64,000 bases of DNA from an uncultured virus (IMG/VR IMGVR_UViG_3300047157_000140) (taxonomy: Duplodnaviria > Heunggongvirae > Uroviricota > Caudoviricetes > Crassvirales): the IMG/VR virus record IMGVR_UViG_3300047157_000140; one strand, 5' to 3'. The notes beneath the pieces were generated by a model, which was not told the origin of the DNA, did not search any database, and worked only from the letters and a program-made list of their open reading frames with translations. This document shows positions 18,590 to 57,108 of this stretch, piece after piece; position 1 is the first letter of the stretch, and each line of letters opens with the position of its first letter. A program made the translations under genes and the position numbers.

Positions 18590-18614
18590 AATATAATATT
18601 ATAAAATTAAAAAA

Positions 18615-21046: not shown

Positions 21047-21047
21047 A

Positions 21048-23257
21048 TTATTGTTTTATTAATTTTGAGTGCATGCCTTTATTTTTATATTTAGCTATAC
21101 TTATGTTTAAATTTTGTTTTTTCTGTTATTGGCATAAGGTGTATATAAATGTTTGTTACAAGCCATTATAGCTAAACCAGAACTAATAGTAGCATCAAAC
21201 TTAGTTCTTTATTTATATCAAATTTAGCCCAATCATTTAACGTTCTATTAAAATACATGTTACCAGTTGTATCCATCTTGTTTTATACCTACATATTTTG
21301 TATGTACATTTCAATAGCAGCAGCGTGAGCTTGCTTAATATCTTCACTTGTATTTGGTATACCACCTATTTCTTTTTCTGTACAGATAGTTTATTCCAAA
21401 CTTTATCAGGTCTATTCATACTAAAACCTCTATAACCTCTTCGTTTTAAATAATATAATAATCTTGGTTTATTGTTTTCTGCTAATATTGGCATACCATA
21501 AAAAACTAAAGCCATTAACACATCTTCAAAAAATATTTCAGCAGTTTGTGGTCTAGCTATATATTCTAAAAAAAATTGACTAGGTGGACAGTCTTCCATA
21601 GACTAAACTTACTTAAGCCATGCAAAGATCCTTTGGATCCTTTACCATCAACTGTTCCAGATATATCATAACTATCACATCCAAAAGCACCCATGTGCTC
21701 ATTACCTGGATATTTACTCCGTTTTTTGTATAACGTTGTTTTGTAATTCTTGACTTGGTATCCAACTAACTTTAAATCTACCTTTTGGATCTGGGTAAAA
21801 AATAACCTTAGTATCTTTAATACCGTTATCCCATTGAAAATTTCCTTGTACTCATTATAGATATTTGCATTTCTTCGTTATAATCTATTTGTTCGTATAT
21901 TTTAACTAAATTAAATATACTATTTTTGCTTCGTCTCTAAAAGCGTGTTCTTCTGTACGTGGAAACTGTCTATAAAACTCATTTAATCCATCTTGATCGT
22001 TTTTAAACCATCAGCTTCATTTTGCCAATGCTCTATAACACCTGTGTCTAATACATCTCCCCACGGATCTAATCTTTCTTGCTTTGGCGTGTTAAAAACA
22101 GGTAATCCATAAGAATCAATGAATCCTTCGTAATTCCATTCCATAGGAATGAACAAAGCTATATAGAGTCCTGACTTGTTTGACCATTGCTGTTTCTTTT
22201 AGTAACATCAGAGTCTGTAATATAATTTTTTAAAATTATCACCACCTTTATCTAAAGCGTTTGATGTTGAACCCATCATACATTTACCAATAATTCTACT
22301 ACCTAATCGTAGTGTTGTTTTTGTAACCCTCCAGTTGTTTAATATATTGTCTGGCCTTTCCCATTTACCACTTTCATCGTGACTAATAGTTTTAATTTTT
22401 CACCATCATAACTATTATCACCAGTATTTTTCCAATCAATAGTTGTATCTAAACCTGTTAATTGTTCTATTTTTTCGTTACTAGTTAATTTTTCTTCTAG
22501 TTAACTTAGTAGCTGGTACTCTATAAGCAAGTTCTGTTTTAGGGTCGATCCATACCATCTTGTATTGGTTTAAAAAAGAAAGGGTAATTAACCGATATTG
22601 GTACAACTTTGTCGGTAAACATTTTTTTAGCATCAGCACCTGTTTTTGACAATATACCAAATCTTGCATCGTTAGATATTGTAGCCATGTTTACTGTTTC
22701 TCCAGAAGCCATAAATGAAAAACCAGATCTTCTATTTTTAAATAACACATACCGTAACACCTTTATCAGCTTTACAGGCTTCCCAAAATATAAAAAATAA
22801 TCTATTTGCTTCTCTAAATCTGGTTTACCAACATCAATCTTACTCCACTGTAAGTACATGTAGTGTGTTCCAGTTATGTAGTTTGATTCACCTTGGTTTT
22901 TAAACCAAAAACCCTTCTTCTCTTCTTTTAAACTCTTCCTCTATGTAATCTGCATATTTTTTTAAAATCATTAGGGTATTCTCTCCAATCAAATATAGTT
23001 TTTATTCTATTTAATTCTTTTGGGTATTCTGTTACCTCCCATTTATTCATGCTTAAACTTATGATATTTTTAGGTTCTTTAGGTAAAGCTATTTTTAAAT
23101 TTTGTATTTCATAACATCACCAATTTGACCAGTTTTAGATATAACAACAATATCATGTTCTTTATTATACCCGTATTTCCATTTTTTAGACTTGTTAAGT
23201 CTTTTTAAAGTATTTATTTATATAATCATTTATATTTTATAAAGTTTGCTCGTACAT
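21048..23257 (-). CDS. terL: Terminase large subunit (frameshifted)
   Basis: Walker A-like KNRRSGFSFM, Walker B-like HDESGKWE, nuclease motif GCDSYDISG and 'ILAENNK'. Confidence 0.85.
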
Positions 23258-23535
23258 TATTTAGATCTTCTTTCAGCAAAACCACCAAAAGCAACTTTTT
23301 CTACTTCTTCTTTTAGGTTTATTTTTAATATATTCTTCTTCTTCTTGTATTCTAGTAAGTATTTCAAAAGCATCAAATATAGCTAGCTTTTTTGTAGCAG
23401 CTGCGTTTTTTAATCTATCAGCTGCTTATATCATCATCTGAATCAACTATAGGTTCTTTAGCTACTTTAATTAATTCTTCAACAGCTTTGTGCCCAGCTT
23501 GGATTATATTCTTTCTTCGTTTCCTTGATATTCAT
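23257..23535 (-). CDS. Putative terminase small subunit (frameshifted)
   Basis: ~90-aa helical ORF (AGHKAVEELIKVAKE...DRLKNAAATKK) overlapping the TerL start. Confidence 0.5.
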
Positions 23536-24071
23536 ATTTAATTGTTAAATGTTTTAGTTCTAACTCGATAAACCTTTCATTGTTTATAATACAAACTCAT
23601 ATTCACTGTTTGGTGTAAAACCAACTAAGCTCAACCTCTTTTAAGGTAAACTTTTGTTTGTATACTTTATAACACCCATTAATGGTTGTTCTTATTAGTA
23701 TCAAACATGTCATTACGATTCAATTGGTTTAACAAAAGCAATAACCATCTAAAGGTTGCCATTTATTGTTCTTTTGATAAGCATATATTTGATCAATAAA
23801 AACAAAGTACAAATCATCCTTATATAGCTTTTACTGTCTTTTTCTTTACCTTTCATGTCGTGTACCTTCTAAAAACATTATGATGCACTATTATACCTTA
23901 TCACCTATACTTTATATTGTTTTAAAATTATAGGCGTTGTTTTACTATAGCTTCCTATTAACGTATTGATGTTAAATATATTGAGTATTAAGTATAAGTT
24001 TATTACCAATTTTTTTAGTATTATTATATCTTGTTTTTAGGTTTATTATAAAATTAAATAACGCTTTTCAT
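23480..24071 (-). CDS. Hypothetical protein, possibly GroES-like fold (frameshifted)
   Basis: Manual translation gives 'VGDKVIVHHNVFRR' and 'VGFTPNSEYEF'; several indels. Confidence 0.35.
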
Positions 24072-24289
24072 TAATACTCTAAATTATACTCTACAGCTAT
24101 TGCCATATTTTTATTAAAATCTTTCCAAGGAATAACATCCTCGCCTTTTTTTAATAAATATACTAAACTTTATCGTCTCCTTCGATTATATGAAATAGTA
24201 TGCCCTCCGTAAACCTCTTGGCCTACGGAGTAGTGCATAGCTTCATTTTTATAATCTTTACCGATACTAATCTTTCTTATCAGCTTCAT
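24071..24289 (-). CDS. Hypothetical protein (frameshifted)
   Basis: MKLIRKISIGKDYKNEAMHYSVGQEVYGGH...NMAIAVEYNLEY. Confidence 0.5.
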
Positions 24290-24581
24290 CTTCTCAGGTA
24301 TTTCAGTATATAGTTCCATCTTGTAAGTTAACAGATACTTTACCGTATTTTTCTTCAAGATCTTTTTGAATAGTTTGTAAATCCATTGTGCAGCTTTTAT
24401 TGTATTCAATGCCCTATATTTTTTGAACTTCTAAACCACCAACTTGCATTTGAACTTGATTTATATTGCTAACTTTTTCTTGAACTGATTTTAATTCTTC
24501 ATCAGTAATCTTTTTTACATCTTGAGCGATGTCCTCTACTTTTACGTCTTCCATTTTATTTAATTTAATTATTAATAATTA

Positions 24582-24957
24582 TACGTCTGTATAATCTTTC
24601 CATTTGTCTTCAGCTTTCATAGCTGTGTAAGCTTGAATTACAGGGTTTTTAGCTGTAGCGCCTACTCCCATAACAAAACTTCCACTTAACTGAAGCGAAG
24701 TCGTCATTGTACTTACCCACGGTATCTCTATGTGCTTTGTCTTTCCAGATTTTAGCTGTATAATTACCTTGAGTACTTTTTACTACTACGTCTTCATAAA
24801 CAGCTTCCGTCTTTATAGACCCATCAGAGTTGTACACGGCAGCTGTTTTTAATTGATTGTTAGTGTACTCATTTGTTGAGTAACCAACATTTGTAACTTT
24901 TACATAAGCATCACTAAGTGTGATTCCTTTGTAAACGTAAGATCCTTTTAATGCCAT
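24582..24957 (-). CDS. Tail-fibre-associated small protein (frameshifted)
   Basis: MALKGSYVYKGITLSDAYVKV..., downstream of the tail fibre. Confidence 0.5.
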
Positions 24958-25013
24958 TGTTTTAATTTTTAAATTGTTATTATTCTATGTTATATATTAT
25001 TTTCACGCTCCAT

Positions 25014-25451
25014 TTACCCATTGGCTTGAACTATTAGTTTCATTAAAAGATGTTGTTGATAAAGAACCCATACTAAATGGATATTGAGTACTAAAACCAT
25101 AACGCTATTTTCACGTTTTTTCGCGATACCCAATGAATAAGTTGTTCCTGTTGTAAAATTTAAACTTGAATACCCTACTCTTGGATTATTTTGTACGTCG
25201 TGGTCGTAACCATAAAATTCAGACATCGCGTGAGGTGCGCTTAAATCTTGAGGTAGTGGGTATCCAGTAGTATTGTTAAAACTAGGGTTTAGAGGTATAT
25301 CACCGCCGCTTGAGTCGGCAATAGGGGATAGAAACAAACCTTTTAAGCTAAAAGAATTTTCACCATCAGCATTGTTAGCCGTGTAATCATCTTCATTTTT
25401 CTCAGAAAATATTTTTAACAAGCTTAATTCGCCACTTGAAGGAACTGCCAT
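25014..25451 (-). CDS. Tail-fibre-associated protein
   Basis: MAVPSSGELSL...PHAMSEFYGYDHD, a pattern often found after phage tail-fibre genes; 3' end uncertain. Confidence 0.5.
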   Translation of the reverse strand: MAVPSSGELSLLKIFSEKNEDDYTANNADGENSFSLKGLFLSPIADSSGGDIPLNPSFNNTTGYPLPQDLSAPHAMSEFYGYDHDVQNNPRVGYSSLNFTTGTTYSLGIAKKRENSVMVLVLNIHLVWVLYQQHLLMKLIVQANG

Positions 25452-25452
25452 A

Positions 25453-25764
25453 TCACCAAGGAGTTTTAAAAGTTACATTAGTAGGTAGTTTTTGTTCTTG
25501 TATGTCTCTTTCTATTATAGCAACATGAGTGTTATAACAATCGTGAGAATTAACCCATCCTTTCACTGTTGTTTCTAGTATATTCTCTAAAGGTGTAAAG
25601 TTGCTAGGATCTAACTCTACTTTTATATGCCCAATGCTAGCACCAACATAATCACCGTCTTCACCTTTAATCAAAAACTCAACCCCTGTTATAACATTTT
25701 CAAATTCACCTAAACTAGGGGCACCTGTAAGTATATTGATTTTTGTAGTATAAATTATTGCCAT
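25453..25764 (-). CDS. Putative tail fibre assembly protein
   Basis: 103 aa, 'NFTPLENILETTVKGWV...PW', translationally coupled to the fibre gene. Confidence 0.5.
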   Translation of the reverse strand: MAIIYTTKINILTGAPSLGEFENVITGVEFLIKGEDGDYVGASIGHIKVELDPSNFTPLENILETTVKGWVNSHDCYNTHVAIIERDIQEQKLPTNVTFKTPW

Positions 25765-28700
25765 TATTTTATTTGTTTTTTAAGTTCGTCTATTTCAGCT
25801 TTTAATTCTTTTATAGCTTCAAGTAGTATTGGAGCTACACCTTGGTGTCTCATTGACAACATACCATCTTCATTTTCTCTTACAAGTTCTGGTACAACTT
25901 CCTTTACATCTTGTGCTATAAATCCTATATCTTCTTTTATATCTAATATACTATCTGATTTTTTCCAATCAAATGTTACACCTTGTAATTTCATAGCTTT
26001 ATCTAAAGCTGATTCAATAGGTTTTATATTTTCTTTTAATCTTTTATCTGATGGAGATCCATAAGCAACAACATCTCCAGAAACTATAAGAGAAGTAGAG
26101 TTTAATTTCATTCTTGTTACAGCAGCTGTTCTAAATTCCATAGCATCGCTACTATGATCATACTCTATTTTACCAGCAATACTTGCTGTTGAACTTGTAC
26201 CATCTGCAAAACAAATACTACAACTCGAAGTAGCTGCTCCATCGATTGTAATACCCACGTTTCCACCTCCAGCTACAACTAAGTTTTTACCGTGCGCGTT
26301 ATAGGATCCAGGAGAATCAGTTCCTATACCTACTTCTCCAGTCGTTGCTTTAATAGTCATTCTTGTGGCTCCATTAAAAAATGCCATGTCTTTAGGAACA
26401 CCTGATGATTGAGTAGAGCCAACTGTCATTAACGCATTTGTATTAGTAATAAATGCTTTCCCGTTAAGAGTTGTAGAAGTTCCTTTAATTTCAATAGCGC
26501 CCGTGTTTCTAATAGACATTATTTCATTAGCTACTCCAACATTATTTCCATTAACTTCATTGTTAGTTGCAAATATTAAATCTCCACGACCTTGAGTTGT
26601 ATTTCTTTTAAAGAATATTCCTGCTTTTACATAAGTATTATTACTAAGCATACTAAAACCAATACTTGCAGAATCACCATCTGTGTCGTTTTCATTTGCT
26701 AAAAGTAAATTATTTGCATCTCCTGATACATCGCTGGTAACAGTTAATTTTCTACCAGGTGCCATCGTTCCAATACCTACGTTCTGAGTAGCATCTATCA
26801 TCATTGCTGATGCGCTTGTCATATATGAAGCAGATCCACTTCCATCAGGACCAGCTGTCCAAAAATGTATTTCTCCAGTATTCCAGTTAGTATCTGCACC
26901 TTTCCCTGTTTTTTTACCACCAATAGCTCCATATACTGATGAGTAATTACCTGATTCAGACAATGCACTAAAAGTTATTAACGGTGAATGAGTTGAGTTT
27001 GTGCTACTGTGATTATAAAGATTTAAACCTAAAGAATAACCTATTGCTGTTGAGTTACTGTTTCCTGCACTAGATAAAGTTAGAATTGGATCTCTACCAT
27101 CAGTAATCCAACCAGCTCCATTAGTAGTAAGCGTTCTACCATTACTTCCAGAATTTGTATAATTATGATTTCCAGAATCTGTATTACTCATATTGTAGAA
27201 ACTTCCACTTGTAGGATTATTAACATTGAAACCTCCTGCAGTTGTAACAGTTCCTATTCCGACTTTACCAGCATTGTCTATAATTAAATCTTTTACTATA
27301 GAACCTTGATTACTATTACTTTGTGTTCTAACAAGCTGCAAGTCTCCGTGGTTAGATAAAATACCTCTATTGTAACTAGTACCTTGCCTACTCCATACCA
27401 TACCACCACCACCAGAATCAGCTGCGTCAAAAGTTAAATACTTACTCCAGCTTTCACCACCGTATCTTTCGTCAACAGCAACATTTGAAATTGTTGTTGT
27501 ACCATTGAAATAAGCGTTGGTTTCAATTGTTGATATATTTGTTGATATTCTAAAATTCTTACAATGTAAAGTTTGTCCATTACCAGTTACTAATCCACCT
27601 GAGGCGGTTGATGATCTCATCCATAATTCAATTTGATCACCTGGTCTTATTTCGCTAATATCTACATCAAACTGTCTAAGCGCATGTACAGATGCACTAA
27701 CACCACTCGCTAATCCATTTGGAGATGCACTTGAGAAGTGACCATGTTTTAATATATTACTAGGTGTAGACATAGCTGTATTTGTGCCATTGTTTCTCGC
27801 GACAGCCCAACCCCAATAATAAGTACCACTAGATATAAAACCTTCCCATTTAACACTTATAGATCCGGCTTTAGAAACTACAATCCTAGCCATTCTTTTG
27901 TAGTTAGCATCACTATCAGTTATAACCTCATCGTGTTCATGGGCAGCTATTATTTTATCACCAGCATCGTAAGCAACTGCTCGACCCTCTGTTATAACAC
28001 CAGAATCGTTTACTTCAAATGTTGGTGATCCACCTTGAGCATCAGAAATCCATAAAGCGTGATCATTACCACCATCTATTCTTAAACCATAAGTAGTTGC
28101 ATGACCATTTCCATCATTATGCTTTCTAATATACATACCCCAGTCACTGGAGTCATTCATTATTTTTATTCCAGCATCATTACTATTTGCATCACTACCA
28201 GTATAATTTATTAATATACTATTTGTTAAAGTACCAGTTATACCTCCAGTTATTTCAACACCACCACTTGTAGTTTCAAACTTTTTAGTACCATTGTGAT
28301 AAAGATTAATTGCTCCACCACTTTGTGCATCTAACATAGAAGCATCACTTGGATTTCTAACTAATAAAGCACCTGTTTTTAGTACTAAACTACCTGCGCC
28401 TGTTTCGTCTATAAAACTATTACTTCCATCATGATATAGTTGTAAATCTTTACCATTACCTAAGGCTATTCTTGATTTATCTTTCCATATGGTATACATT
28501 TCTGTTGTATTAGTGCCATCATGCACTGCGCTACCACCATCTAAATAGAAATAATCAGCTGAGGTTGCGTTATTTTCACCGTTATCAGCTTGGAATATTA
28601 AATTACCATCTTGCTTTTCTTGTTGAATATAAAATGATCCTTCTTTGCTTTTTATCGTACTGTGACTTCCGGTATGATATAATTGTAAATCATCACCTGA

Positions 28701-31700
28701 ACCTAGTTTTATTTTTTTATCATCATAAAGATGTAAATTTTCTTTCAAAGTTACATCACCAGTATTGTCTATTTTTATGTCTTCATTAAATGCTGAATTG
28801 TAAGAATTACCAATATATAAATAATCGTTTGTACTATTCCATTTTATAAATCCACCATCTGTACCAGATAAACTATCTCCTATCCATATTTCTGCAGCCG
28901 CACCTATTATTTGTAAATTTCCGTTTGTTCTTAGGTTTTTCTCAAAAGTCGATACTCCATCAGCTTTAATTGTTAATCTTGTTCCAAAGCCATTAGAACC
29001 ATCTTGTGTTTGAAAAAGTAAAGAACCTTTATCGTTAGCACCGTCTCTATATCCTGCTACCGTCGCTACACTGTCATTATTGTTAGAAAATATTAATTCT
29101 CCAATTGGAACAGTACCAGATGTTCTCTTACCATTCATAAACTGAGTGGCAACTGAACTTGTGTTAGCGTGATTAACTACATTAAGAGTACCATTAAAAT
29201 CAGCGTCTCCTTGTATTTTAAAGATCTTTGTTTGACCGTTTCTACCACGATGAGTTAAATTTTTACCTTGAACACAGTCATGTAAGTGTGATATAGTTGT
29301 GGATGCTGTAGAACTAGGAAGTGTTGCTATTGTAGTTTGATCAGTTAAAGATTCTATAGTAAAGTAATATGTAGCAGCATTAGCGCTAGCGGTTTTCATA
29401 GAAAGCGTATACTGACCATTACCATCACCTTCTACTTTTAAAGTTGGTATTGTTGCACTATTAGTATCATCGGGATAAAAACCGTTCATTGATTCTATTT
29501 GTACATCTTGATAATGGCCAACCATTATTTTTGCTGTAAAAGTACCTACATGACTAGTACCATGAGCAGTACCAGTTAATCTTACTATAGTTGCTAATTG
29601 ACTATTAGTTACACCAGTAGCGTAAACCCTAACATAACTATTAGATATTGATACATCACAATATTTTTTATGTGGATGTGATATTCTACCTGAGAAAGTA
29701 CCACCACCAGACTGGGAACAAAAGCACCAACTCCAGATAAAGTTCCTGCAACTGATATGTTGTTAGCGGCTATTGTTCCTGAGGAGTAAATATTTCTCCA
29801 TGCTAAACTTGCGCTATGACCTAAATCGTACGCGTTATGAGTATTTGGATAAACTTTACCATTTATATCAATATTCATAACATGGGTTCCAGCGGCGTGA
29901 AACTTTAAATTTTGACCAGTAGAGTGTAAGTTTGCTGCTAATTCTATATCACCTGCAAAAGTTGAGGTTCCTGTTCCATTAACATCTAAAATACCTCCAA
30001 CAGTAACAGTACCAGTGTTAGGATTTAATGCAAGATTAACTCCACTAGGGGTTGTTATTTGACCACCACCAATATCAATACTACTACCAAAACTTGCCCA
30101 ATTATCATGTGCTAGTGTCAGTGCTGTACTCATTGATCCTGCGCTAACAGTTCTAAATTCTAATCTACCATGTCTTGCTGATACATCGGTCCATATACTT
30201 TTTATTTGCGAACCATAAACACTTGTCGTCCCTGTATAATAACCACCCATGTTTATCACACCATGAGTATCTTCATCGGCTGGTGAAGGTTGTAAAATGC
30301 AATAAATCAATTTGAGCACCACCAGCTCCTGTGTTTGTTGATTCTACTCTTATAGCATCACCAGAGCCTTTTACATGAAGTAAACCTGCTAAACCGGATT
30401 CTATACCAATACCAACTTTACCTGTATAATCAAAATGAGCAATAGTTCCTCCACCATCACCTAATATTCTCACATTGTCGTCACCTTTGATTTTTAAATT
30501 TAAACCATCAGAGTGAATATAAGATTGAGCACCTGTAGCACTTGAGGCGCTAGAATTTCTAAACCAAATTCTTTTACCATCAGATTGTGTTATATCACCC
30601 GCAAAAGTTGCGGATTTATCTGTATTTAACGTTAAAATTAAATTAGTACTTTGTATATCTGTGTGTGAAAAGTATAATCTAGCAGAATCAGAGCTCATAA
30701 AGAATTGAGCATCTCCAGAAGTTCCTCTAATAAAACTTAATAAACTTTGTTGACCTTTTAAAGCTAATTGCGCGGTAGTAGAATCACCACCACCAAGACT
30801 TAAAGTTCCTGCAAAAGTTGCGTTTTGAGATTTATCTAGTGTAAGTGCTGTTGTTAAAGCATCACTACCATCAGGGGTAGTATAAAATATCATTTTACTA
30901 GGTGCGTCAGAATTAGCTACAGCTTGACCATCTGCTACTACAGATATAGCACCCATCTGTGCAAAATCAGTTCCATCAAACCCTTGCCATCTTATCAAGC
31001 CACCTTGACCATCAGGTAAAGCCACTGTTGGTGCGGAAGCATCTCTTGCTCTTAATGATATTAAATTAGCTGTACCATCTCTTCTACCTTCTACAGTTAA
31101 TGAACCTCCTTCACCGGCTCCACCACCGCCGTCTGGATTTGTACCATCTGTATAAAAAGCAATTTTTTCAACATTTGAATCAAACATATGTAATCTAGCA
31201 CCATTAGTAGATTTTTCACCCATACGTATGATAGGATCAGTACCACTCCCATTTTGTATAATGTCTATTGCTGATTGTTGAGAGCTTATTGATTGTGATT
31301 TAATGCTTAAACCGGTTACATCAGTTGCGGTTAAACCACCGGTTCCTAAGTTACCTGCAAAAGTTGTGTTACCGTCTATATATGTGGTACCACTAGTGTG
31401 TAGTGATAGTTGATTAGTTGAGTGATTGTAACCAAGCCAAGCGACATTATTAGCTGCAGCATCGCCAAACATATAGTAAGCATCAGCTGTACTTGATTGT
31501 TGTACGATTGATCTTGTAGTACCTTTAACGTGTAAAAATGTAGTTGCATCATATGGAGAACCTGTAGTACCAGGGCCTACAGTCACAAGTCCTGCAAAAG
31601 TTGCGGGTTAGTGCTGTTCTAGATGTACTACCACCGCTTCCATTGTTATGTGGTACACTAAAGTGCATATTTGCATCAAACGAATTTGTAGCATTTTCAA

Positions 31701-33617
31701 CTAAATTAATTCTACCAAACGCATCTCCACCTGAATGAGTATATCCTAATGCTAAAGTAGCAACGGCAGCTACACTTGCGTTATGAGTAGATGCTAATAC
31801 AGAAAGTATTTTATTTGTACCTGTGTTTAAAGTTACATTGCCTGCAAAAGTTGCATTACCTGAAGTATTAACATTTATATAATTAGAACTCCAAGCTTCA
31901 GTAGTATCATTGTAATATCTTAGGTTCCAACCATTAGAACCATCAAATAATTGCTGCCATTTGTTACCAGCGTTATTATAGTTTAAAATAAATGTATCTT
32001 GCGCTTCAATATTGCTTGTAGATGTAATAGCACCAGAACTAATAGTACCAGAAAAAGTTGAAGAACCATTAGCATTTATTGTAAGTCGAACACCACCAGC
32101 AGAACCATTTGAACTTGAACCTACAAACTCTAAACTTCCTGCTGTTGAAGTATCTGCACCATAAAATCTAATTTGACTTTTAGTTGTGCTTTCTTGTGAA
32201 ATTTTAATAGAACTTGTCGTATGTGATAAATTCTGACCTTTAGCAACAAATATTTTATCGGTTTCTACAATTCCTGCAAAAGTTGCGTTACCAGAATTAT
32301 CTAATGTAATTGCTAGAGTTTTTGAACCATCATATTCAGTAGTTCCTATTTTACCATAAGGCACACTGCCAGTCCTACCACCTTCAAAATAAATACCTCT
32401 ATCATTTGAAGTTCCTAATCTAATAGTACCACCACTTCCATCAGCATCAGATGAACCTTCAAACCTTGCGATTTCTGAAAGTGAGCCAGAGGATCCAGCA
32501 TTTTTAACGTGAAATTTTGTAGCTGTAGTATCGTAAGCGTAAGGCGTAGAAGTTCCAATACCGACGTCTCCGTTACTTTTTATAGTTACCGCTGTTGTAT
32601 CTCCAGCTGATGAGTTTGAAACTCTAAAAAACATTGACTTTGTCGTTGCTCTATTGTCAAAGTAAAAATCTCCTGTATAACTTTGAATGTAACTTGAATT
32701 ATCGCTTGATAAATGTCGTATTATTAAATCCCCTCCAGTGCCCGCTGCAAAGTATTTATTATCAACAACACTTACATTACCTGTAAAAGTTGCGTTTTGT
32801 GAACTGTTTAGTTCTAAAGCAGTAACTACAGTAGAACCATTGCTCGTTTGGAAATACATGTTACCTAGAGCGTTATCGTTAGTACCGTTGTGAGATACTT
32901 CTATCTTACCTAAAGAATTGTCAGCATGATCTTTAAAAACTATTTTTGATTCAGCACCTCCATCGGTATGTTCATTTGTAGTATTTTTTAAAGTTAGCAA
33001 TGGAGAGTCTTTGCTAACAGTTACATCACCTGCAAAAGTTGCTTTTCCAAAAGTTGATGGAGAAAATGTATTTGCAACGTGTATTCCTGAATTAAAAGTT
33101 GCCCAACCACCATCTGACATATCTAAGGTTAAAGCATCTATTGAAGAAGCACCATCTTTACCTTTAAATATTATATCTTTATCACTTACAGAATTTTGTA
33201 TTTTTACATCTCCTGCTGTTTGATTAATAAATAAAGCATTAGAACCATCGTGTAATATTCTAAGACCTGTAGTTCCATTAAGGTATAAATTATCACCTGT
33301 CCCTAAGATTACATTACCTGCAAAAGTTGCATTTGTACTACTGCCATCACCTAGTCTTAATATCTCTGTGCCTAAGTGAAGAAATTGAATACCATCCCCT
33401 ACTGTAGGGTGATCATAAAACCTTGCTAAAGTGCCAGAACTGTCAATATAAATTCTTTGATTATATACATCGATGTTTCTAATAAATAAAGTTCTAAAAT
33501 CTTTGGAGCTTGTAGTACCTAAATCGTAAGTAGCATCTGCGTGAGGTATTAAATGTCCTTTGATAGTTGAGTCACCAGCGTTATTTACTTTTAAAGCGCT
33601 ATTAACTTTTGCGCCAT
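25764..33617 (-). CDS. Very long modular tail fibre (~2600 aa) with C-terminal peptidase S74 intramolecular chaperone; split by frameshifts
   Basis: Contiguous ORFs 31549..33120, 30273..31586, 29609..30322 and 25764..29525; repeated ATFAG and VGIG motifs; C-terminal SDKRLKENI...GVTFDWK...GFIAQDV. Confidence 0.85.
29952..33330 (-). repeat. Dispersed 14-bp direct repeat GCAACTTTTGCAGG (ATFAG)
   Basis: Plus-strand CCTGCAAAAGTTGC exact at 30808, 31591, 31841, 32273, 33029, 33317; one mismatch at 29952, 30598, 31354, 32780. Confidence 0.9.
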
Positions 33618-33646
33618 GTTGGTTAAAATTTAATTATTTAATTATA

Positions 33647-34930
33647 TTACCCTATCTTAGTCATAAGAACTCTTATTGCATTAGCAGCTGGTGCTGATGC
33701 AAATGTTATTGCCACAGCTCCACTAGTTCCCCTTGCTACATCCGCCATAACTGTAAGCCCTGTCGATACTTCAATTAATTGAATCATGAACTGAGTACTG
33801 TCGGCACCTAGCCCGTGGTTTTTATGAGGTGCAGATGCTCCTGAGTTTAATAAGTTTATTGTTGTTACTGAAGCATTACCTATAGTTGTAGTAAATTGCC
33901 TAGCTGTTATATCAGTTGTTAAAGCTATAGTACCTGAATTATCTGGTAAAGCTACTACTCTATCAGCTGTTGGTTCACCACCTGTAAGCTTTATTTCATG
34001 AGCATCAGCTGTAGTACCTTCAAATTCTATAGTGTTGTTTTCTACAACTTTTACAGTTTCGTTTAATGTTGTTTGTGTACCTACTACTGTAAAGTTACCA
34101 GTTACTGTTAAGTTATCACCAACTGTAACTTCTGAGACGTAGAATGACCAATACTTATAGGAACACCAGAAGTTGCTGTACCTATTGTAATACCGTTTGT
34201 AGTATTAGAATTATCTATATTTAATGTAGAGGTTGAATCTAAGGATATATTACTACCATCTACAACTAAAGTACCATCTATGTCAGTATTGTCTAAATTA
34301 GATACACCATCTACGCTTAGATCAGTTGTTACCGTTAGGTTGTTACCAATAGTTACATTATTTGGTAAACCAATTTGTAAAGATACGTCTGTGCCAGATT
34401 TAGAAGAAGCGGTTTCAATTTCATTTGAAGTACCTATTATTCTTAAATCATCTGTTAATAGATCTACATTAGCAGCTCCTGAATCACCATCGACAGTAAG
34501 TGCTGTAGCTATACTTTCGCTACCAGCAGCTGTTAATCTACCTTGTTGATCTACAGTAAATGTAGGTATTGCTGTTGCACTACCATAACTATTTGGTGTA
34601 ACAGCTGTATTATCAAGGTCAATTTCTAATGTCGATCCGGATAACACTTGTTGATATACCAGTGTCACCAGATATGGTTAAAACAAAATTACCTTTAATA
34701 ACGTCATATGAATTACCACTGTCATCAGCAATTACCTTAACTTGTCTTATATCACCACCAAGATCTATCCAAGAAGATCCGTTGTAAACTTTAGGTGAGT
34801 CTGTTCCTGTGTCGTATATTATTTTACCCTCTACGTTAGATGCAGAGCCTTCTGTTGTTTTGTGGAGTATTGCGTTTTGCAGCTCCGATACACTTCTTAA
34901 GTCTAAGTGATTTAAAATAGGTATTGCCAT
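33647..34930 (-). CDS. Tail fibre/tail structural protein (frameshifted)
   Basis: ORFs 34619..34930 and 34108..34668 plus downstream frame; 'YGSATAIPTFTVDQQGRLTAA' fibre motif. Confidence 0.7.
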
Positions 34931-34934
34931 AGTT

Positions 34935-35642
34935 TTAGTTTAAGTATGCGTAGCCACTTTCAGCAGCTGCTAAGTTTATTGTTAAGTTGTTTTCGTCAGT
35001 ATATACTACCCCAGCAAAAGCACCTACATTAGTATAAACACTATCAGAACTAGAAAATTTTATACTAACACTAGGAAACTTACCCAGGTTATGATTTATC
35101 ACCCATGATGCGGATGCTGTATTTTGATGATGCGCAAACGTTAAGTCGCCACCACTTTCAGGAAATATATCTACGCCGTATATTTTGTTATTTACAATAG
35201 ATCCATTAGAAGTTTTAAGTTCTAACGTTAGGTTGTAAAAACTAGAATTACTGTCTACTTGTAAGCTTTTTACCTTATAAACACCAAAGTCATTTTTATT
35301 GTTTATGTCGTAAATAATTATATCTTTGCCACTTAATAGAGTTAAAGCATTATTTATAGGGTCATCGTAATTATAATAATTAAATTTACTAACTTTTATA
35401 CTAGTAACATTAGCTAAAGTATTACCGCTAGATAAAGTGAATTTTATATCTCCATTAGATATATTAGTTTGCTCACATCTATATGTAAAAGAGCTACTAG
35501 AGCCAGATGTGTTTGTTTCTGATAAAAAAACTTGTATGTCATTTACAGAAAAATTTCTAGTAGAACCGTCAGAGTTAGAACCTAAAAGCTTATCACTTCC
35601 CTCTACTGTAGCGTCTAAATTATATTCACTAATTCTACTCAT
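34935..35642 (-). CDS. Tail structural protein
   Basis: 235 aa with C-terminal 'WVINHNLGKFPSV...SGYAYLN' module. Confidence 0.6.
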   Translation of the reverse strand: MSRISEYNLDATVEGSDKLLGSNSDGSTRNFSVNDIQVFLSETNTSGSSSSFTYRCEQTNISNGDIKFTLSSGNTLANVTSIKVSKFNYYNYDDPINNALTLLSGKDIIIYDINNKNDFGVYKVKSLQVDSNSSFYNLTLELKTSNGSIVNNKIYGVDIFPESGGDLTFAHHQNTASASWVINHNLGKFPSVSIKFSSSDSVYTNVGAFAGVVYTDENNLTINLAAAESGYAYLN

Positions 35643-35646
35643 TATG

Positions 35647-36102
35647 CTATTTTTTTAGTATATTTCCAATCTTTTCTCCACTTCGTCCACCAAAATAGGC
35701 TAAAACAACAGCCATCATAACTTTTTCAAAAGTATCGTTCCAAGTAGCACCTATATTAAAAGGTATTGAATCTACGCTATCAAGTATACCAGCTAGAGAA
35801 AATATAACAATGCACCACACTAATACTAGTGGGCGCACGTTTTTTGAAAGCCATGAATCTGATGCAGAATCTGCTTGCCATCTAGACGTAATAGACTCTA
35901 TTTCTTTATTCTGTTGCTCGTAAATTAATTGTTGAAGTTTTATTTTATCCTCACTGCTAACATCTGATTTACCTATTTGAGCTATAGCTTCAGCAGGCGA
36001 TGTTGCACCTTTTAGTAAGTTACCAAGGGTGGGATTTATCATAGACGCAGCACCGAATAGTAGTTTACCTACTGTGCTTTCTGTAAATTTCTTTTTAGAC
36101 AT
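35647..36102 (-). CDS. Holin-like membrane protein (3TM holin type)
   Basis: 'RWQADSASDSWLSKNVRPL', two hydrophobic helices and 'AYFGGRSGEK'. Confidence 0.7.
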   Translation of the reverse strand: MSKKKFTESTVGKLLFGAASMINPTLGNLLKGATSPAEAIAQIGKSDVSSEDKIKLQQLIYEQQNKEIESITSRWQADSASDSWLSKNVRPLVLVWCIVIFSLAGILDSVDSIPFNIGATWNDTFEKVMMAVVLAYFGGRSGEKIGNILKK

Positions 36103-39177: not shown

Positions 39178-39618
39178 CTATCTTTCTTTATCTTTTATCA
39201 TATCATCTATAGATTTATTGTAAACCTTATCAGTGTATGATTTGTTTTTAAAAAATTTACTTCTTTCTGATGTAGGTAAATCCTCTTCAGCTAACATTAT
39301 TCTGTACATTCTAGTTATTAACTGACTGCACTTAAAAGAAGTTTTATATATAGTATATTTGATTGTAGTTCTATTTCTATGACGCCAGGGTTCTATCCAA
39401 CCATCTCTTCTTAGCCTTTCCCACCTGTTTTTATCCCAAGAGTATGTATACACTCCTTGTATAAAATCATTACGTGTAAATCGCGATTTGCAATCTAAAT
39501 ATATAAGTAATTCTAAATCTGCATCTTTTAGGCTATAAGTTTTACAGGCCCATTTTCTAATGAGCCTATAATACTTGAATAAATTTATTTCTCTTAAATT
39601 AGTTGGAGTTAGTCTCAT
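39178..39618 (-). CDS. Hypothetical protein, possibly winged-helix DNA-binding
   Basis: Likely start MRLTPTNL overlapping the groES stop; 'DADLELLIYL...RWERLRRDGWI'. Confidence 0.5.
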   Translation of the reverse strand: MRLTPTNLREINLFKYYRLIRKWACKTYSLKDADLELLIYLDCKSRFTRNDFIQGVYTYSWDKNRWERLRRDGWIEPWRHRNRTTIKYTIYKTSFKCSQLITRMYRIMLAEEDLPTSERSKFFKNKSYTDKVYNKSIDDMIKDKER

Positions 39619-39872
39619 TCTACTAATACAACATCTTGCATCTGTATAACATGATACAGTTTTTCTTTCCATCTTATACTGTGACCAGCATGTCTATCAA
39701 AGAATATAACATCTTTTTCCTTAAGTCCTTCAACTAATGTACCTGTAGACACTATATTAGCTTTAATATACCTGTTTTCAGTATCAACATTGTCTGTTAT
39801 TAAAAGTCCACCTACTTTCTTCGGCTCTACTTTATGTTTTTCAACTACTATATAATAATTAACTGCTTGCAT
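39615..39872 (-). CDS. groS: Co-chaperonin GroES-like
   Basis: 85 aa with 'KKVGGLLI' mobile loop and 'VIQMQDVV'; adjacent to GroEL. Confidence 0.8.
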   Translation of the reverse strand: MQAVNYYIVVEKHKVEPKKVGGLLITDNVDTENRYIKANIVSTGTLVEGLKEKDVIFFDRHAGHSIRWKEKLYHVIQMQDVVLVE

Positions 39873-41051
39873 TGCTTATTCTTACGTTACTTATTACACA
39901 ATCTGCTGATATTATAGTTAAAACTACCGATATAGCGTTTTTTAGAGCTGATTTTGTCACTAAAACTGGATCTATTATACCAGTTTGTATCATATTCTTA
40001 ATACAACCGCAAGTTACATCAATTCCTTCGCCATCTTTTAGCTTTTTATGCGATATATCTTCCAAACCTGCGTTACTTAATATAGTATAGAATGGAGATT
40101 CAACCGCTTTTGCCAATATTTGTTCACCTTCACCTTCAAATGGTGTGTTTTTTACAGCATTTAACAAAGCCACGCCACCACCCGGGACTATTCCTTCTTT
40201 CAAGGCGGCCTTAACAGCGTAAATTGAATCTTCTATTCTATCTTTTTTCTCTTTAAGCTCTATTTTAGAGTCAGCACCAACTTTTACAACAGCTACAGAG
40301 CCGTTTAACATAGCTAATCTTTGTTCTAGTCTACGTTTTAAGTACTGATTAGTCTCTTTTTTAATACTTTTCTTTACATCTTTAACTCTTTGCGATATTT
40401 TAGCGTCCATACCTTCTATAGTAAGAACAGTTACCTTATCTTCAGTTACAGCCGTTGAAGCTTCACCTAAAACATCAGGTTGTATTAGATCTAAATCATC
40501 TCCTAGCTCTTCATTTATAACTGTTGCTCCAGTTAATAAAGCTAAATCCTCTATTGTATCAGCTTTTGTTGGGCCAAATCCAGGGGGATCGATGACATCT
40601 TTTAGCATGCTACCTTTACGTCTATAGCTGTATCTGTTAAGTATGTATTTACCTTTTCTAAGTGCTGAATTTATACCTTGCTTAATAAATCTAGTAGAAA
40701 GCTCTGCATATTGTTCTTTTTGTACTTCTTTAATCAGTGCTTCAGCAAGGACGGTAGCTGTAGTAGTACCGTCACCTGCTTCTTTCACTGTGTTTTTAGC
40801 GGCTTCTTTAATAAGAGTAGCTCCGAGGTTTTCAACCGGGTCATATAAGACAACAGATTCTGCTACTGTTACACCGTCTTTTGTAATGACCGGGTTGCCT
40901 CTAGCATCTTCGTATATTACACACTTTCCAGATGCTCCTAGAGTAGACTTCACTGCTTTCGCTAATTTGTCTACACCCGCAATTATTTTACTTTTAGCTT
41001 CATCACCAAAGTTTAACTCTTTGACAACTCGCTGGGTTGGTTATATTCCAT
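39859..41051 (-). CDS. groL: Chaperonin GroEL-like with an internal deletion and indels
   Basis: VKSTLG, ITKDGVTVA, AGDGTTTATVLA, PGFG, EGIVPGGG and GIIDP motifs; only ~397 codons. Confidence 0.85.
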
Positions 41052-49922: not shown

Positions 49923-50465
49923 ATGACTATAAACGAAAAGCTGGCTACAATCCAGACAAAATTTAAATCGAAAAAAAGTAGATTTAATTCCTTTGGCAAA
50001 TACAACTTCAGATCAGCCGAAGACATTCTCGAAGCAACAAAACCCTTTCTATTAGAGTTAGGAGTTACAGTAACAATTAATGAAGAGATCATTAGTGTTG
50101 ACCCTTTACCTATGATGCAGTCTACTGCTTCTGTAAGTGATGGTGATAATGCTATACACGCTACTGCTATAGTCGGTGTAGACTTAAATCAAAAAGGTAT
50201 GAACGTACCTCAACAGTTTGGTTCCGCATCCTCTTATGCTAAAAAATATGCGTTAGGTAATTTATTCTTAATTGATGACACAGCGGACAGCGATGCTACT
50301 AATGATCATGGTAAAAAGAAGTTTGCGCCAAAAACTAAAACCTCAATAACAGCAGATCAGTTAGCAAAAGCTAAAGACTATGTTAAAGCTGGAGGTAAAA
50401 TAGAAGCTATAAAAGCTAAATATGCTTTGTCTAAAGAAGCAGAGCAAGAACTAACAACATTATAG
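49923..50465 (+). CDS. erf: ERF-family ssDNA-annealing recombinase
   Basis: FGKYNFRSAEDI...QQFGSASSYAKKYALGNLFLIDD..DSD. Confidence 0.88.
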   Translation: MTINEKLATIQTKFKSKKSRFNSFGKYNFRSAEDILEATKPFLLELGVTVTINEEIISVDPLPMMQSTASVSDGDNAIHATAIVGVDLNQKGMNVPQQFGSASSYAKKYALGNLFLIDDTADSDATNDHGKKKFAPKTKTSITADQLAKAKDYVKAGGKIEAIKAKYALSKEAEQELTTL

Positions 50466-51197
50466 ATGAAAAAAGAAGATGTGTTAAAACAATTAGAAAA
50501 TGACAAGCATTACTACGGTGACTTTGGTAAAAAGTATCTTAGTAACTCTGACATTTCTACTTTATTAACAAATCCTTTAGCGCTAGGTCAACCATCAAAG
50601 CAGATACCTGCATTTTTAGTTGGCGGTTATTTTCATACTGCGATACTAGAACCTGAAAAGCTTAAAAACTTTAAAGTTGTAGAATCAACAAGTAGAAACT
50701 CTAAAGCGTATAAAGAGATCTCAGGTGGAGAATTATGTTTATTGCAAAACGAAGTAGATAAGATAGAACTGATGACAGATAAAATGATGTCAAACGAAGT
50801 TTGTAGAGATCTTATACGTGGTAGTAACATAGAATATGAACGACCAGGGATTACAGAGCTTGAAGGCGAGATGTGGAAAGGTAAAGCTGATATTATAAAC
50901 CATGATGAAAAGCTGATCATTGATTTGAAGACGACAGCAGACATTACAAAGTTTAAATACTCAGCATCCAAGTATAATTACGACTCACAAGCTTATATTT
51001 ATAGTAAACTGTTTGGTTATGAAATGTTGTTTATAGTTATAGATAAAACAACTCACCAAATAGGTATTGTTTGACTGCTCACCTCAATTTTATGAAAAAG
51101 GTGCTGATAAAGTTCAACAAGCGGCAGAACAATATAAATTATTTTTTAAAACAGAGGATTTGATCCTCAACAGTTTTTTTTAACTAAAACCCTTTAA
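50466..51197 (+). CDS. PD-(D/E)xK exonuclease, RecE/ExoVIII-like (3' indels)
   Basis: LSNS, FHTAILEP, KGKADI, IIDLKTT, YDSQAYIY; adjacent to ERF. Confidence 0.8.
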
Positions 51198-56862: not shown

Positions 56863-57108
56863 CAAGAAGAAAACTACTTAAGCTTTTAGCTTACACAAAT
56901 AAGTTAACATCATATCAAAAGTTTCGCATCACGTGTAGGTTACATGGGTGCGGGTTTTTTGATAGCAGGGCAATGGACATTAGATCCTAGGCTTTTCATG
57001 ATAGGTTTTATATGTGTTATAGTACAAACATCATCAAGAAAACAATGGAACTTAGTTGCATTGAATATTAATGGGCTAATAGCTTGGATAACTCATTTTA
57101 TAAAATAT
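56856..57108 (+). CDS. Small membrane protein between nrdB and nrdA (indels)
   Basis: Hydrophobic 'GAGFLIAGQW...FMIGFICVIVQ...WNLVALNINGLIAW'; fused to nrdA in the ORF track, probably by error. Confidence 0.5.

Follow-up and report, generated by a model that had tools for sequence, protein, structure and literature searches.

The 64,000-nucleotide stretch analysed here (hereafter the window) carries a giant tail fibre gene of 7.9 kb (gene 2) and, upstream of it, a fibre-like gene (gene 1), both on the minus strand (Table 1). In this record, gene 2 is broken near 33605, 31605, 30288 and 29712 and reads as four frame pieces. Six frame breaks were counted in the fibre of this record, four of which are missing from the contigs of four public runs, and 20 letters missing here directly 5' of copy 6 of the repeat described below are present in contigs of four runs. 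In relatives, intact fibre ORFs of 1803–3918 aa were found, and the gene 1 counterpart is an intact ORF of 401 aa in one of them (L090). The original prediction, which treated the repeat region (29952–33330) as part of one tail fibre gene, needs correction on this point: the region spans three reading-frame pieces here, and two genes exist.

The fibre resembles known tail fibres and lies in the virion block, with structural genes flanking it upstream and downstream. Its distal piece matched 18 PHROG families, mostly tail fibre, and the Peptidase_S74 domain is located at residues 1238–1295 of the last frame piece, the C-terminal place of such a chaperone. For the motif-bearing pieces, no Pfam family and no strong tail-fibre family match were found (Pfam, PHROGs). 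A PDB sequence search with two fibre pieces returned chance-level matches only (E at least 0.06), and the structure predicted for two modules, with no alignment input, was all-beta with a mean pLDDT (44.5) too low for further use. Against 50,697 phage records, megablast of the fibre gave zero matches, while tblastn gave four weak matches to Roseobacter and Pelagibacter phage fibres (33–49% over 11–21% of the query); no close cultured relative was present among these records.

Table 1. Features of the fibre locus and candidate recombination genes (positions in the window).
Feature	Positions	Strand	Remarks
Gene 1, fibre-like, upstream	33647..34930	-	frame shifts near 34650 and 34133
Gene 2, giant tail fibre	25764..33617	-	ATG 33617, stop 25764; PHROG tail-fibre families
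Peptidase_S74 (intramolecular chaperone)	25878..26051	-	PF13884, 71 bits, E 9.9e-20; fibre C-terminal end
Copy 1	33317..33330	-	exact, ATFAG; joins N-terminal part to module 1
Copy 2	33029..33042	-	exact, ATFAG
Copy 3	32780..32793	-	one mismatch, ATFTG
Copy 4	32273..32286	-	exact, ATFAG
Copy 5	31841..31854	-	exact, ATFAG
Copy 6	31591..31604	-	exact, ATFAG; frame break immediately 5'
Copy 7	31354..31367	-	one mismatch, TTFAG
Copy 8	30808..30821	-	exact, ATFAG
Copy 9	30598..30611	-	one mismatch, ATFAG with GCG
Copy 10	29952..29965	-	one mismatch, STFAG
Degenerate copy	33089..33102	-	ATFNS; first 9 letters retained
Degenerate copy	33044..33057	-	STFGK; retains CAACTTTT
Degenerate copy	32048..32061	-	STFSG; retains CAACTTTT
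Degenerate copy	30084..30097	-	ASFGS
ERF-family single-strand annealing protein, candidate catalyst	49923..50465	+	PF04404, 108 bits
PD-(D/E)XK-type exonuclease	50466..51074	+	adjoins ERF

We searched the window for the 14-mer GCAACTTTTGCAGG, allowing up to two mismatches. As originally claimed, six exact copies and four copies with one mismatch were identified, and none with two, all on the minus strand within 29952–33330. Shuffled controls (n = 100) contained 0.63 copies on average and three at most, and never ten or more (0/100); the repeat is real. All ten copies are read in the open frame of their own piece, with the consensus [A/S/T]TF[A/T]G (ATFAG in seven copies, ATFTG, TTFAG and STFAG in one each), and conservation extends beyond the motif to the peptide LTLDxSxNATFAGxV. 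Besides the ten, there are four or more degenerate copies. The modules between copies are 70–215 aa long and weakly alike, the top mutual identity being 37% over 59 aa, in line with the dissimilar modules of ~70–210 aa described beforehand. No exact repeat longer than the 14-mer was found in the fibre, the flanks being at most 60–84% alike, and no site pairs from the same locus had similar flanks. The ten copies are all direct repeats, i.e. the inverted sites of site-specific shuffling systems were not found. Moreover, the copies are confined to the proximal 3.7 kb of the gene, the distal 4.2 kb, including the Peptidase_S74 end, containing no exact or one-mismatch 14-mer. This distribution does not support the terms "receptor-binding modules" and "host-range system" of the original prediction.

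The third letters of the repeat are almost fixed, as had been noticed: codon 1 ends with A in 10/10 copies, ACT and TTT are each found in 10/10, and codon 4 ends with A in 9/10. The Gly codon that follows varies (GGT 6, GGA 3, GGC 1), and so does the codon before (AAT, AAC, AAA, CCC, TCC or ACC). In the fibre, GCA makes up 0.43 of the Ala codons, compared with 0.24 in 36 ORFs outside it, and the background share of ACT is 0.45; in the same neighbour context, these shares do not exceed 0.50 for GCA and 0.61 for ACT. Codon usage and neighbour context are therefore ruled out as the source of the fixation, their shares being far below 9–10/10. The [V/I]GIG repeats of the same gene (five copies) do vary at silent sites, as claimed, although four of the five have GGA as the codon of the second Gly. 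For the VGIGT motif, the second Gly is GGA in 34 cases out of 51 (background 0.28). With one biased codon in VGIGT, codon fixation at conserved motifs may partly have another cause.

For the IMG/VR relatives, which were retrieved by peptide patterns located outside the motif, single-linkage dereplication reduced 197 [AST]TF[AST]G sites to 50. Among these, GCA is the first Ala codon in 29/33 (P = 1.5e-7), ACT the Thr codon in 41/50 (P = 1e-9) and GCA the second Ala codon in 28/33 (P = 1e-6), for backgrounds of 0.40–0.44; TTT (47/50) and GGT (29/50) are consistent with background. The proposed check of codon conservation against genome usage thus shows a fixation above background, both in the window and in its relatives. 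In a codon-blind search of IMG/VR for N-ATFAG-N-V, the exact 14-mer was found, among the matches listed, in 52 of 118 open-frame sites and, after dereplication, in 25 of 54, against 6.8% expected (P = 1.5e-15). The 66 remaining sites among the matches listed (56%) have other spellings, and a site thus need not carry the exact word. Another spelling, GCCACGTTTGCTGG, is made of rare codons (GCC 0.09, ACG 0.13); it was found at at least 18 fibre-context loci, occupies both sites in four contigs (L240, L270, L309, L344), and coincides with 20 of 96 homology endpoints in its own contig set, among the matches listed. Since alternative spellings also recur and sit at endpoints, what matters seems to be identity and not a specific word. 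The notion of two isolated pools, one for each spelling, is unsupported as stated, since 33 blocks of 75–86% identity connect both sets, among the matches listed, a further hit between copies of one and the same contig being set aside.

The homology endpoints between the window and its relatives, all comparators being metagenome assemblies, were then located with blastn. Thirty-one of the 70 endpoints (35 dereplicated blocks) fall at most 10 nt from a 14-mer; random placement put 5.4 there on average and 26 at most, and 31 was reached in 0 of 10,000 trials. The other 39 are away from any exact or near-exact 14-mer, with clusters at 31137–31142, 30406–30408 (beside a VGIG motif), 31416–31432 and 33084–33094 (a degenerate copy). 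In addition, 96 of 173 flank-sharing site pairs from different loci (55%; the pairs are non-independent events) break on one side at the motif, compared with 2–9% at control anchors placed 90–150 nt off it. Exact identity past the 14-mer on the unlike side extends over 0–3 letters in 90 of these 96 pairs, with a maximum of 9, and in junction alignments identity switches from about 0.3 to 1.0 within the motif. The alignment of related fibres, suggested as a check by the original prediction, thus reveals breakpoints concentrated in the 14-mer.

Individual copies illustrate these breaks. At copy 1, homology with L090 stops and homology with L002, L006, L094 and L095 begins. Homology with L003 and L001 stops at copy 4 and homology with L004 and L005 at copy 5; the latter is also a start for L096–98, as is copy 6 for L089, L091 and L096–98. 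The L090 homology starts at copy 7 (97.9%), with an identity of 0.37 upstream and 1.00 downstream; that with L001/L081 starts at copy 9 (91%; 0.33 upstream, 1.00 downstream) and at copy 10 (97.9%), together with that of L091 (88%). Upstream of copy 8, the same module is common to L082/L084 and L083 at 90–95%; past it, L082/L084 and L083 carry two different modules, neither like that of the window, and L086, L088, L006 and L094/95 match the downstream module only. Concerning degenerate copies, the homology blocks of many relatives stop at 33084–33094, at the copy at 33102, and L001/L081 possess an exact 14-mer at roughly the place aligned with the copy at 30097, where their block stops.

The modules themselves are reshuffled. 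The 177 modules belong to 123 families, whose neighbours and order differ between contigs. The window module at 30821–30612, for instance, has different neighbours in L094/95, L088, L006, L100, L086 and L085, and in L006 the module immediately after it belongs to the same family as module 1 of the window. Because of this mosaicism, MAFFT gave a scrambled alignment for the segments of 20 relatives. Contigs of four public runs, from four studies, contain window modules that are identical but have different neighbours. Among the 15 loose ends of run contigs listed in 29.7–33.6 kb, 10, where the contigs diverge from the window, are at most 13 nt from a 14-mer; loose ends lie at copy 2 (33042 and 33049), and copy 3 is spanned by a run contig without differences. 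The run-contig joints between copies mostly have sides of 21–29 letters, which may be modules of other phages, and they were therefore not counted as deletion variants. The breakpoints and module neighbours of the relatives support the core idea of the original prediction, i.e. that modules are gained, lost, exchanged or reordered through crossovers in the DNA at the 14-mer; its interpretation as a whole is partly supported.

The phage ERF/exonuclease pair to which the exchanges had been attributed is indeed present (49923–51074) and might catalyse them. The reported absence of a site-specific recombinase was also recovered: no integrase, invertase, resolvase or transposase family was detected with PHROGs or Pfam in the 78 reading frames scanned, which include few of the ORFs <100 aa. 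As for diversity-generating retroelements, the PHROG and Pfam scans detected no reverse-transcriptase family, and no long near-identical pair that could form a template and variable repeat was found in the fibre. In De Paepe et al. (2014, PMC3945230), minimal efficient pairing segments are 23–27 bp for Red-beta and 31–34 bp for RecA, and an Erf/Exo pair matched lambda Red in recombining diverged DNA. As 14 bp is well below these quoted minima, events at the joint would be rare.

Taken together, we consider it fairly probable that the 14-mer serves module shuffling as a linker whose crossovers depend on sequence identity, resembling the motif recombination proposed for T-even gp37/gp38. The 14-mer would spell in DNA a joint peptide of conserved structure, (L-T-L-D-x-S-x-N)-A-T-F-A-G-(N/D)-V, which connects one shaft module to the next in a giant trimeric tail fibre. 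The owner of this fibre is an uncultured marine phage that has Flavobacteriia podophages as distant relatives. Because many phages that occur together share these joint letters in almost all of their modules, the letters would offer a short stretch of perfect identity, and infrequent recombination that depends on identity, by annealing or by template switching, would resolve there, between modules or between phages. The 14-letter identity itself would cause the crossover. As an exchange at the joint respects both the frame and the structural register, it would give a working fibre in which a module has been added, lost, replaced or moved, and such exchanges might alter host range. Lineages with the majority spelling would have the most exchange partners, and silent positions would therefore stay fixed.

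Alternatively, protein structure alone might set the junctions: illegitimate recombination would occur anywhere, only ATFAG joins would yield folding trimers, and the silent fixation would have an unrelated cause (translation kinetics, mRNA features or another constraint). The longer conserved peptide around the motif, the in-frame position of all junctions, the codon-biased Gly of VGIGT and a word shorter than the quoted pairing minima are all compatible with this explanation, and protein-level selection would likewise leave surviving junctions at the structural joint. However, identity-free recombination would not homogenise the spelling. The fixed codons are moreover not the favoured ones, GCA being at 0.24 in other genes, and a second spelling made of rare codons argues against a cause based on translation optimality. 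Concerning mRNA features, a GCAA/UUGC mini-hairpin is not stabler than shuffles in 4/4 contexts (z from -0.53 to +0.47), and no Rfam family was found in 25000–36000. The Bacteroidota -7 promoter box has the consensus TAnnTTTG, and GCT-ACT-TTT-G would create one; yet this box is not avoided elsewhere on the sense strand, with 21 occurrences seen for 16.4 expected in other ORFs (4 for 5.3 in the fibre). We therefore regard a purely structural origin as unlikely.

It is very unlikely that the exchange is initiated by a dedicated nuclease or recombinase with specificity for the 14-mer, in the manner of Rci or the fibre-gene invertases. The word is nearly invariant and sharply bounded, the break lies inside it, and the window has several ORFs of unknown function, all of which would suit such an enzyme; but the 78 reading frames scanned yielded no recombinase family, and on ten copies that are all direct repeats site-specific action would yield deletion alone. 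Other contigs also use other spellings as junctions, with other words at 56% of sites among the matches listed. As the comparators and run data are all short-read assemblies, and this record has many frame errors, the junctions could also be assembly chimeras joined at the shared word, the codon fixation then resulting from the counting of related copies. This artefact is extremely improbable: identity across the break is 14–17 letters in 90 of 96 pairs, below the usual assembly word of 21 or more letters, and 34 junctions were found again in at least two different contigs. L094/L095, L096–98 and L082/L084 share junctions despite different IMG/VR sample numbers, and the codon bias persists after aggressive dereplication, in relatives found by peptide patterns outside the motif.

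More tentatively, the 14-mer might be a shared recombination "grammar" of a whole marine phage metapopulation, with one spelling of the joint maintained in its silent letters by frequency-dependent second-order selection for recombinability. The fibre would then be an open cassette system, and other spellings (GCCACGTTTGCTGG) would mark partly separate pools. We find this extension rather doubtful; if true, silent letters, not proteins, would decide which phages trade fibre modules. No part of a phage evolves faster than host recognition, and the rebuilding of fibres without breaking their long trimeric fold is understood only in part beyond T4-like coliphages. With the crossover linker proposed here, one 14-letter DNA rule would explain much of the mosaicism that abundant, uncultured marine phages show in their giant fibres. 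Silent-site fixation together with breakpoints is a measurable signature, searchable in any virome. For laboratory phage-bacterium systems, the joints also suggest places where chimeric fibres could be spliced naturally and in register, and synonymous recoding offers a direct test of the old "linker" view of how phages evolve by modules.

Short repeated sites in a coding region also join alternative C-terminal segments in frame in the R64 shufflon (Rci/sfx) and in the Gin, Cin and Min systems, where a dedicated recombinase acts on inverted sites within one genome. Unlike these, the fibre has direct sites, no recombinase was found among 78 frames, and exchange is seen between genomes. In Botstein's modular theory of phage evolution, mosaics reportedly arise from recombination at short similarity stretches. 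The collagen-like repeats of Duplessis and Moineau are said to act as recombination sites, and a similar role is reportedly proposed for the gp37 His boxes and gp38 glycine-rich motifs of T-even phages, in work attributed to Tetart, Desplats and Krisch in 1998 and to Trojet et al. in 2011. Relaxed homologous recombination by Rad52-like phage recombinases likewise gives mosaics at short similarity, but there the exchanges, between genes or prophages, involve diverged homology that extends over hundreds of bases (De Paepe et al. 2014, PMC3945230), against one 14-base intragenic word here. In Streptococcus thermophilus phage antireceptors, collagen-like repeats separate domains and variable regions of the host-range protein (Duplessis & Moineau 2001, as described in PMC5601072); those repeats are tandem Gly-X-Y, whereas the fibre has a single fixed word.

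The closest counterpart comes from T-even fibre and adhesin genes, in which short conserved motifs delimit variable segments and are proposed recombination hotspots for modular shuffling (PMC12032242). Our literature searches gave no match for tail fibre/gp37 His-box recombination, and no phage paper with "ATFAG" among the matches listed. As in gp37/gp38, the motif recurs within the gene, is conserved both as protein and as DNA and separates dissimilar segments, and the homology of relatives breaks at it. In contrast, the protein family and the motif are unrelated, the modules having no Pfam or PDB match. The modules here are shaft units of 70–215 aa and not hypervariable loops of a monomeric adhesin, and their joint is placed proximally in the shaft rather than at the receptor-binding tip. 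Relative to the T-even system, silent-site fixation and breakpoint concentration are here quantified across metagenomes. The fibre works like the gp37/gp38 system, yet outside those protein families, and is a fresh example of an already known route by which phages rebuild their fibres.

We scanned the whole 64 kb for the 14-mer GCAACTTTTGCAGG, which encodes the joint peptide ATFAG in the giant tail-fibre gene. Six exact copies and four copies with one mismatch were found, all on the minus strand at 29952-33330, and no copy with two mismatches was present in the whole 64 kb. Shuffled controls gave a mean of 0.63 matches, ten or more being reached in none of 100 shuffles, which bears out the count of the original prediction. 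All ten copies lie in a locally open frame and read ATFAG (seven copies), ATFTG, TTFAG and STFAG. At least four degenerate copies each keep part of the word. As had also been claimed, the modules between neighbouring copies are dissimilar: they measure 70-215 codons, in multiples of three except at the frame breaks of the record, their best mutual likeness is 37% over 59 residues, and no exact repeat longer than the 14-mer exists within the fibre.

Across the ten copies, the third codon letters are A (10/10), T (10/10), T (10/10) and A (9/10), while the codon before the word and the Gly codon after it (GGT 6, GGA 3, GGC 1) are variable. GCA is a minority Ala codon in the 36 other ORFs (share 0.24) and reaches 0.43 in the fibre; the share of ACT is 0.45. 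Codon preference or neighbour context was rejected as the cause of this fixation: with the neighbouring residue or letter taken into account, GCA does not exceed a share of 0.50, nor ACT one of 0.61. Relatives were then fetched from IMG/VR by peptide patterns outside the motif, yielding 104 loci (L081 was dropped, as it repeats the L001 contig) and 197 [AST]TF[AST]G sites in ORFs of at least 150 codons. Merging sites that shared at least 60% identity over 45 nt on either flank left 50 sites, in which GCA (29/33 vs. 0.44 background, P = 1.5e-7), ACT (41/50 vs. 0.40, P = 1e-9) and GCA at the second Ala (28/33 vs. 0.44, P = 1e-6) are in excess. Background usage fits TTT (47/50) and GGT (29/50); it does not account for GCA and ACT, so the predicted near-fixation of third positions withstood comparison with codon usage. 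A codon-blind scan for N-ATFAG-N-V returned at least 123 stretches and at least 124 sites, at least 118 of them in open frames. Among the matches listed, the exact 14-mer occupies 52 of 118 open-frame sites and, after dereplication, 25 of 54, vs. 6.8% expected from codon shares. The control motif VGIGT, another conserved motif of the fibre, had been said to vary at synonymous sites. This holds overall, its variation being background-like, but not for its second Gly, which is GGA in 34 of 51 relatives' sites (background 0.28) and in four of five in the window, i.e. a single fixed codon among freely varying ones.

We also aligned the fibre with the 104 loci by blastn, keeping blocks within 34000-29700 that reached 100 nt and 75% identity, and merging near-duplicates (35 blocks). 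As the original prediction implied, homology ends concentrate at the 14-mer: a copy is no more than 10 nt away from 31 of the 70 block ends, whereas random placement of ten sites gives a mean of 5.4 and reached 31 in none of 10,000 trials. Ungapped alignments of the junctions have an identity of about 0.3 on one side and 0.8-1.0 on the other, with the change falling inside the word. At 30821, an upstream module common to L082/L084 and L083 (90-95%) is followed by two different modules, both unlike that of the window, and L086 and L088 share the downstream module only. From 245 sites (up to two mismatches) in 52 loci, we compared the 60-nt flanks of pairs from different loci. Both flanks were alike in 77 pairs, only the upstream flank in 43 and only the downstream flank in 53; the share of breaks, counted over pairs that are not independent events, is thus 55% at the motif vs. 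2-9% when the anchors are moved 90-150 nt away. In 90 of the 96 break pairs, the sequences stay identical for just 0-3 letters past the word on the side where they differ, a stretch too short for an assembler mis-join there, and 34 junctions were found in two or more contigs. A second cluster of breakpoints (31137-31142, in the window and relatives) lies inside a module, away from the 14-mers, at a Pro-Asp-Gly-Gly-Gly-Gly stretch, possibly a joint of another kind.

When 36 loci were cut at the motif, 177 modules in 123 families were obtained, 35 of the families having at least two members. Window module 30821-30612 belongs to a family that sits beside different neighbours in L094/95, L088, L006, L100, L086 and L085. 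In L006 the module directly after it belongs to the same family as the first module of the window, whose place in the window is seven modules upstream. In addition, contigs from four public sequencing runs are identical to single window modules and continue into unlike sequence. Among the 15 points of divergence listed for 29.7-33.6 kb (466 others are outside this list), ten fall within 13 nt of a 14-mer.

The window is a piece of phage genome (GC about 33%) encoding virion proteins, portal and terminase fragments, a holin, an endolysin, GroES/GroEL, a ligase, a sigma factor, thymidylate synthase and ribonucleotide reductase. A capsid-region structural protein shares 43-50% identity with Flavobacterium and Cellulophaga podophage counterparts. 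The DUF7936 protein encoded downstream of the fibre may be a fibre accessory protein. In relatives the ORFs are intact (1803-3918 codons), and at four of the six fibre-region breaks (29712, 30288, 31605 and 34133) an in-frame version was found in contigs of four runs from four studies, among the rows listed. Since the portal, large terminase and ribonucleotide-reductase large-subunit genes also consist of many short frames (18600-25000, minus strand; 56944-58803, plus strand) while the genes of 1-18.5 kb are intact, the fibre breaks look like defects of the record rather than biology; it appears to contain indel errors in clusters. In one ORF, ~120 profile positions are missing from the start of the GroEL frame, and this gene may also be broken. 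At 31605, 20 letters present in contigs of four runs, immediately 5' of the 31604 copy, are absent from the record; in size, this loss stands apart from the breaks elsewhere (1-2 letters), and microhomology was not seen flanking the gap. Three runs have contigs in which 34064 is joined to 34749 (join sides of 90-93 letters), which points to a variant of the upstream fibre-like gene that lacks ~684 letters or has a different sequence in their place.

Features of the fibre region and chaperonin genes, with examples of identity jumps
Feature	Position	Strand	Remark
First fibre-region gene	34930-33647	-	Broken by two frame shifts
Giant fibre gene	ATG 33617 to 25764	-	Peptidase_S74 chaperone domain at end; four frame shifts
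Small DUF7936 protein gene	25453-25764	-	Directly downstream of fibre gene, overlaps its stop
GroES and GroEL-like chaperonin genes	39618-41040	-	Phage-encoded
Degenerate 14-mer copy	33102	-	Partial word kept
Degenerate 14-mer copy	33057	-	Partial word kept
Degenerate 14-mer copy	32061	-	Partial word kept
Degenerate 14-mer copy	30097	-	Partial word kept
Identity jump, L081	30611		Ungapped alignment
Identity jump, L090	31367		Ungapped alignment
Identity jump, L081 and L091	29965		Ungapped alignment

The joint is also spelt otherwise. In L017 it is written in rare codons, GCCACGTTTGCTGG, which recurs in at least 18 loci in the same LTLDxSxN-ATFAG context (GC 0.37-0.44; codon-family shares GCC 0.09, ACG 0.13). 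This spelling occurs in the fibre genes of L017/L288, L240, L270, L309, L344 and others (contigs of ~40% GC), and it occupies both sites of L240, L270, L309 and L344. Homology ends fall at GCCACGTTTGCTGG in 20 of 96 cases in this second-spelling set. The spellings do not define sealed exchange pools, as 33 blocks of 75-86% identity link the two sets. A third spelling, GCCACATTTGCTGG, was seen at 8 of 118 codon-blind sites among the matches listed.

The simplest account of these sequence comparisons, covering fixation and breakpoints together, would be that the 14-mer is an identity-dependent crossover linker. Its place would be a joint that is structurally permissive, where rare crossovers would give fibres in frame and in register. 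Against this reading, a word of 14 bp falls short of the minimal pairing lengths given in PMC3945230, other spellings occupy 66 of 118 codon-blind sites among the matches listed, and 39 of 70 block ends lie away from the 14-mers. As rival causes of the fixation, we tested an RNA mini-hairpin, a known RNA family and avoidance of the consensus of a Bacteroidota promoter box. The hairpin did not outdo shuffles in any of 4 contexts, 25000-36000 gave no Rfam match, and the box is not avoided. Exchange driven by a nearby site-specific recombinase was also tested; none was found among the 78 reading frames scanned, in agreement with the absence noted originally. In the window, the gene of an ERF-family annealing protein adjoins that of a PD-(D/E)XK exonuclease, and we infer that ERF may have a role in the exchange. 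Because the copies lie in the proximal shaft and not at the distal end, the link to host range is putative.

Among the papers listed by a literature search for 'ATFAG', none is on phages. Recombination at conserved motifs has been proposed for T-even gp37/gp38, according to PMC12032242, which cites Tetart 1998 and Trojet 2011. The window fibre differs in descent, not being homologous to those proteins, but is alike in working: the 14-mer joint would act as this proposed conserved-motif recombination does.
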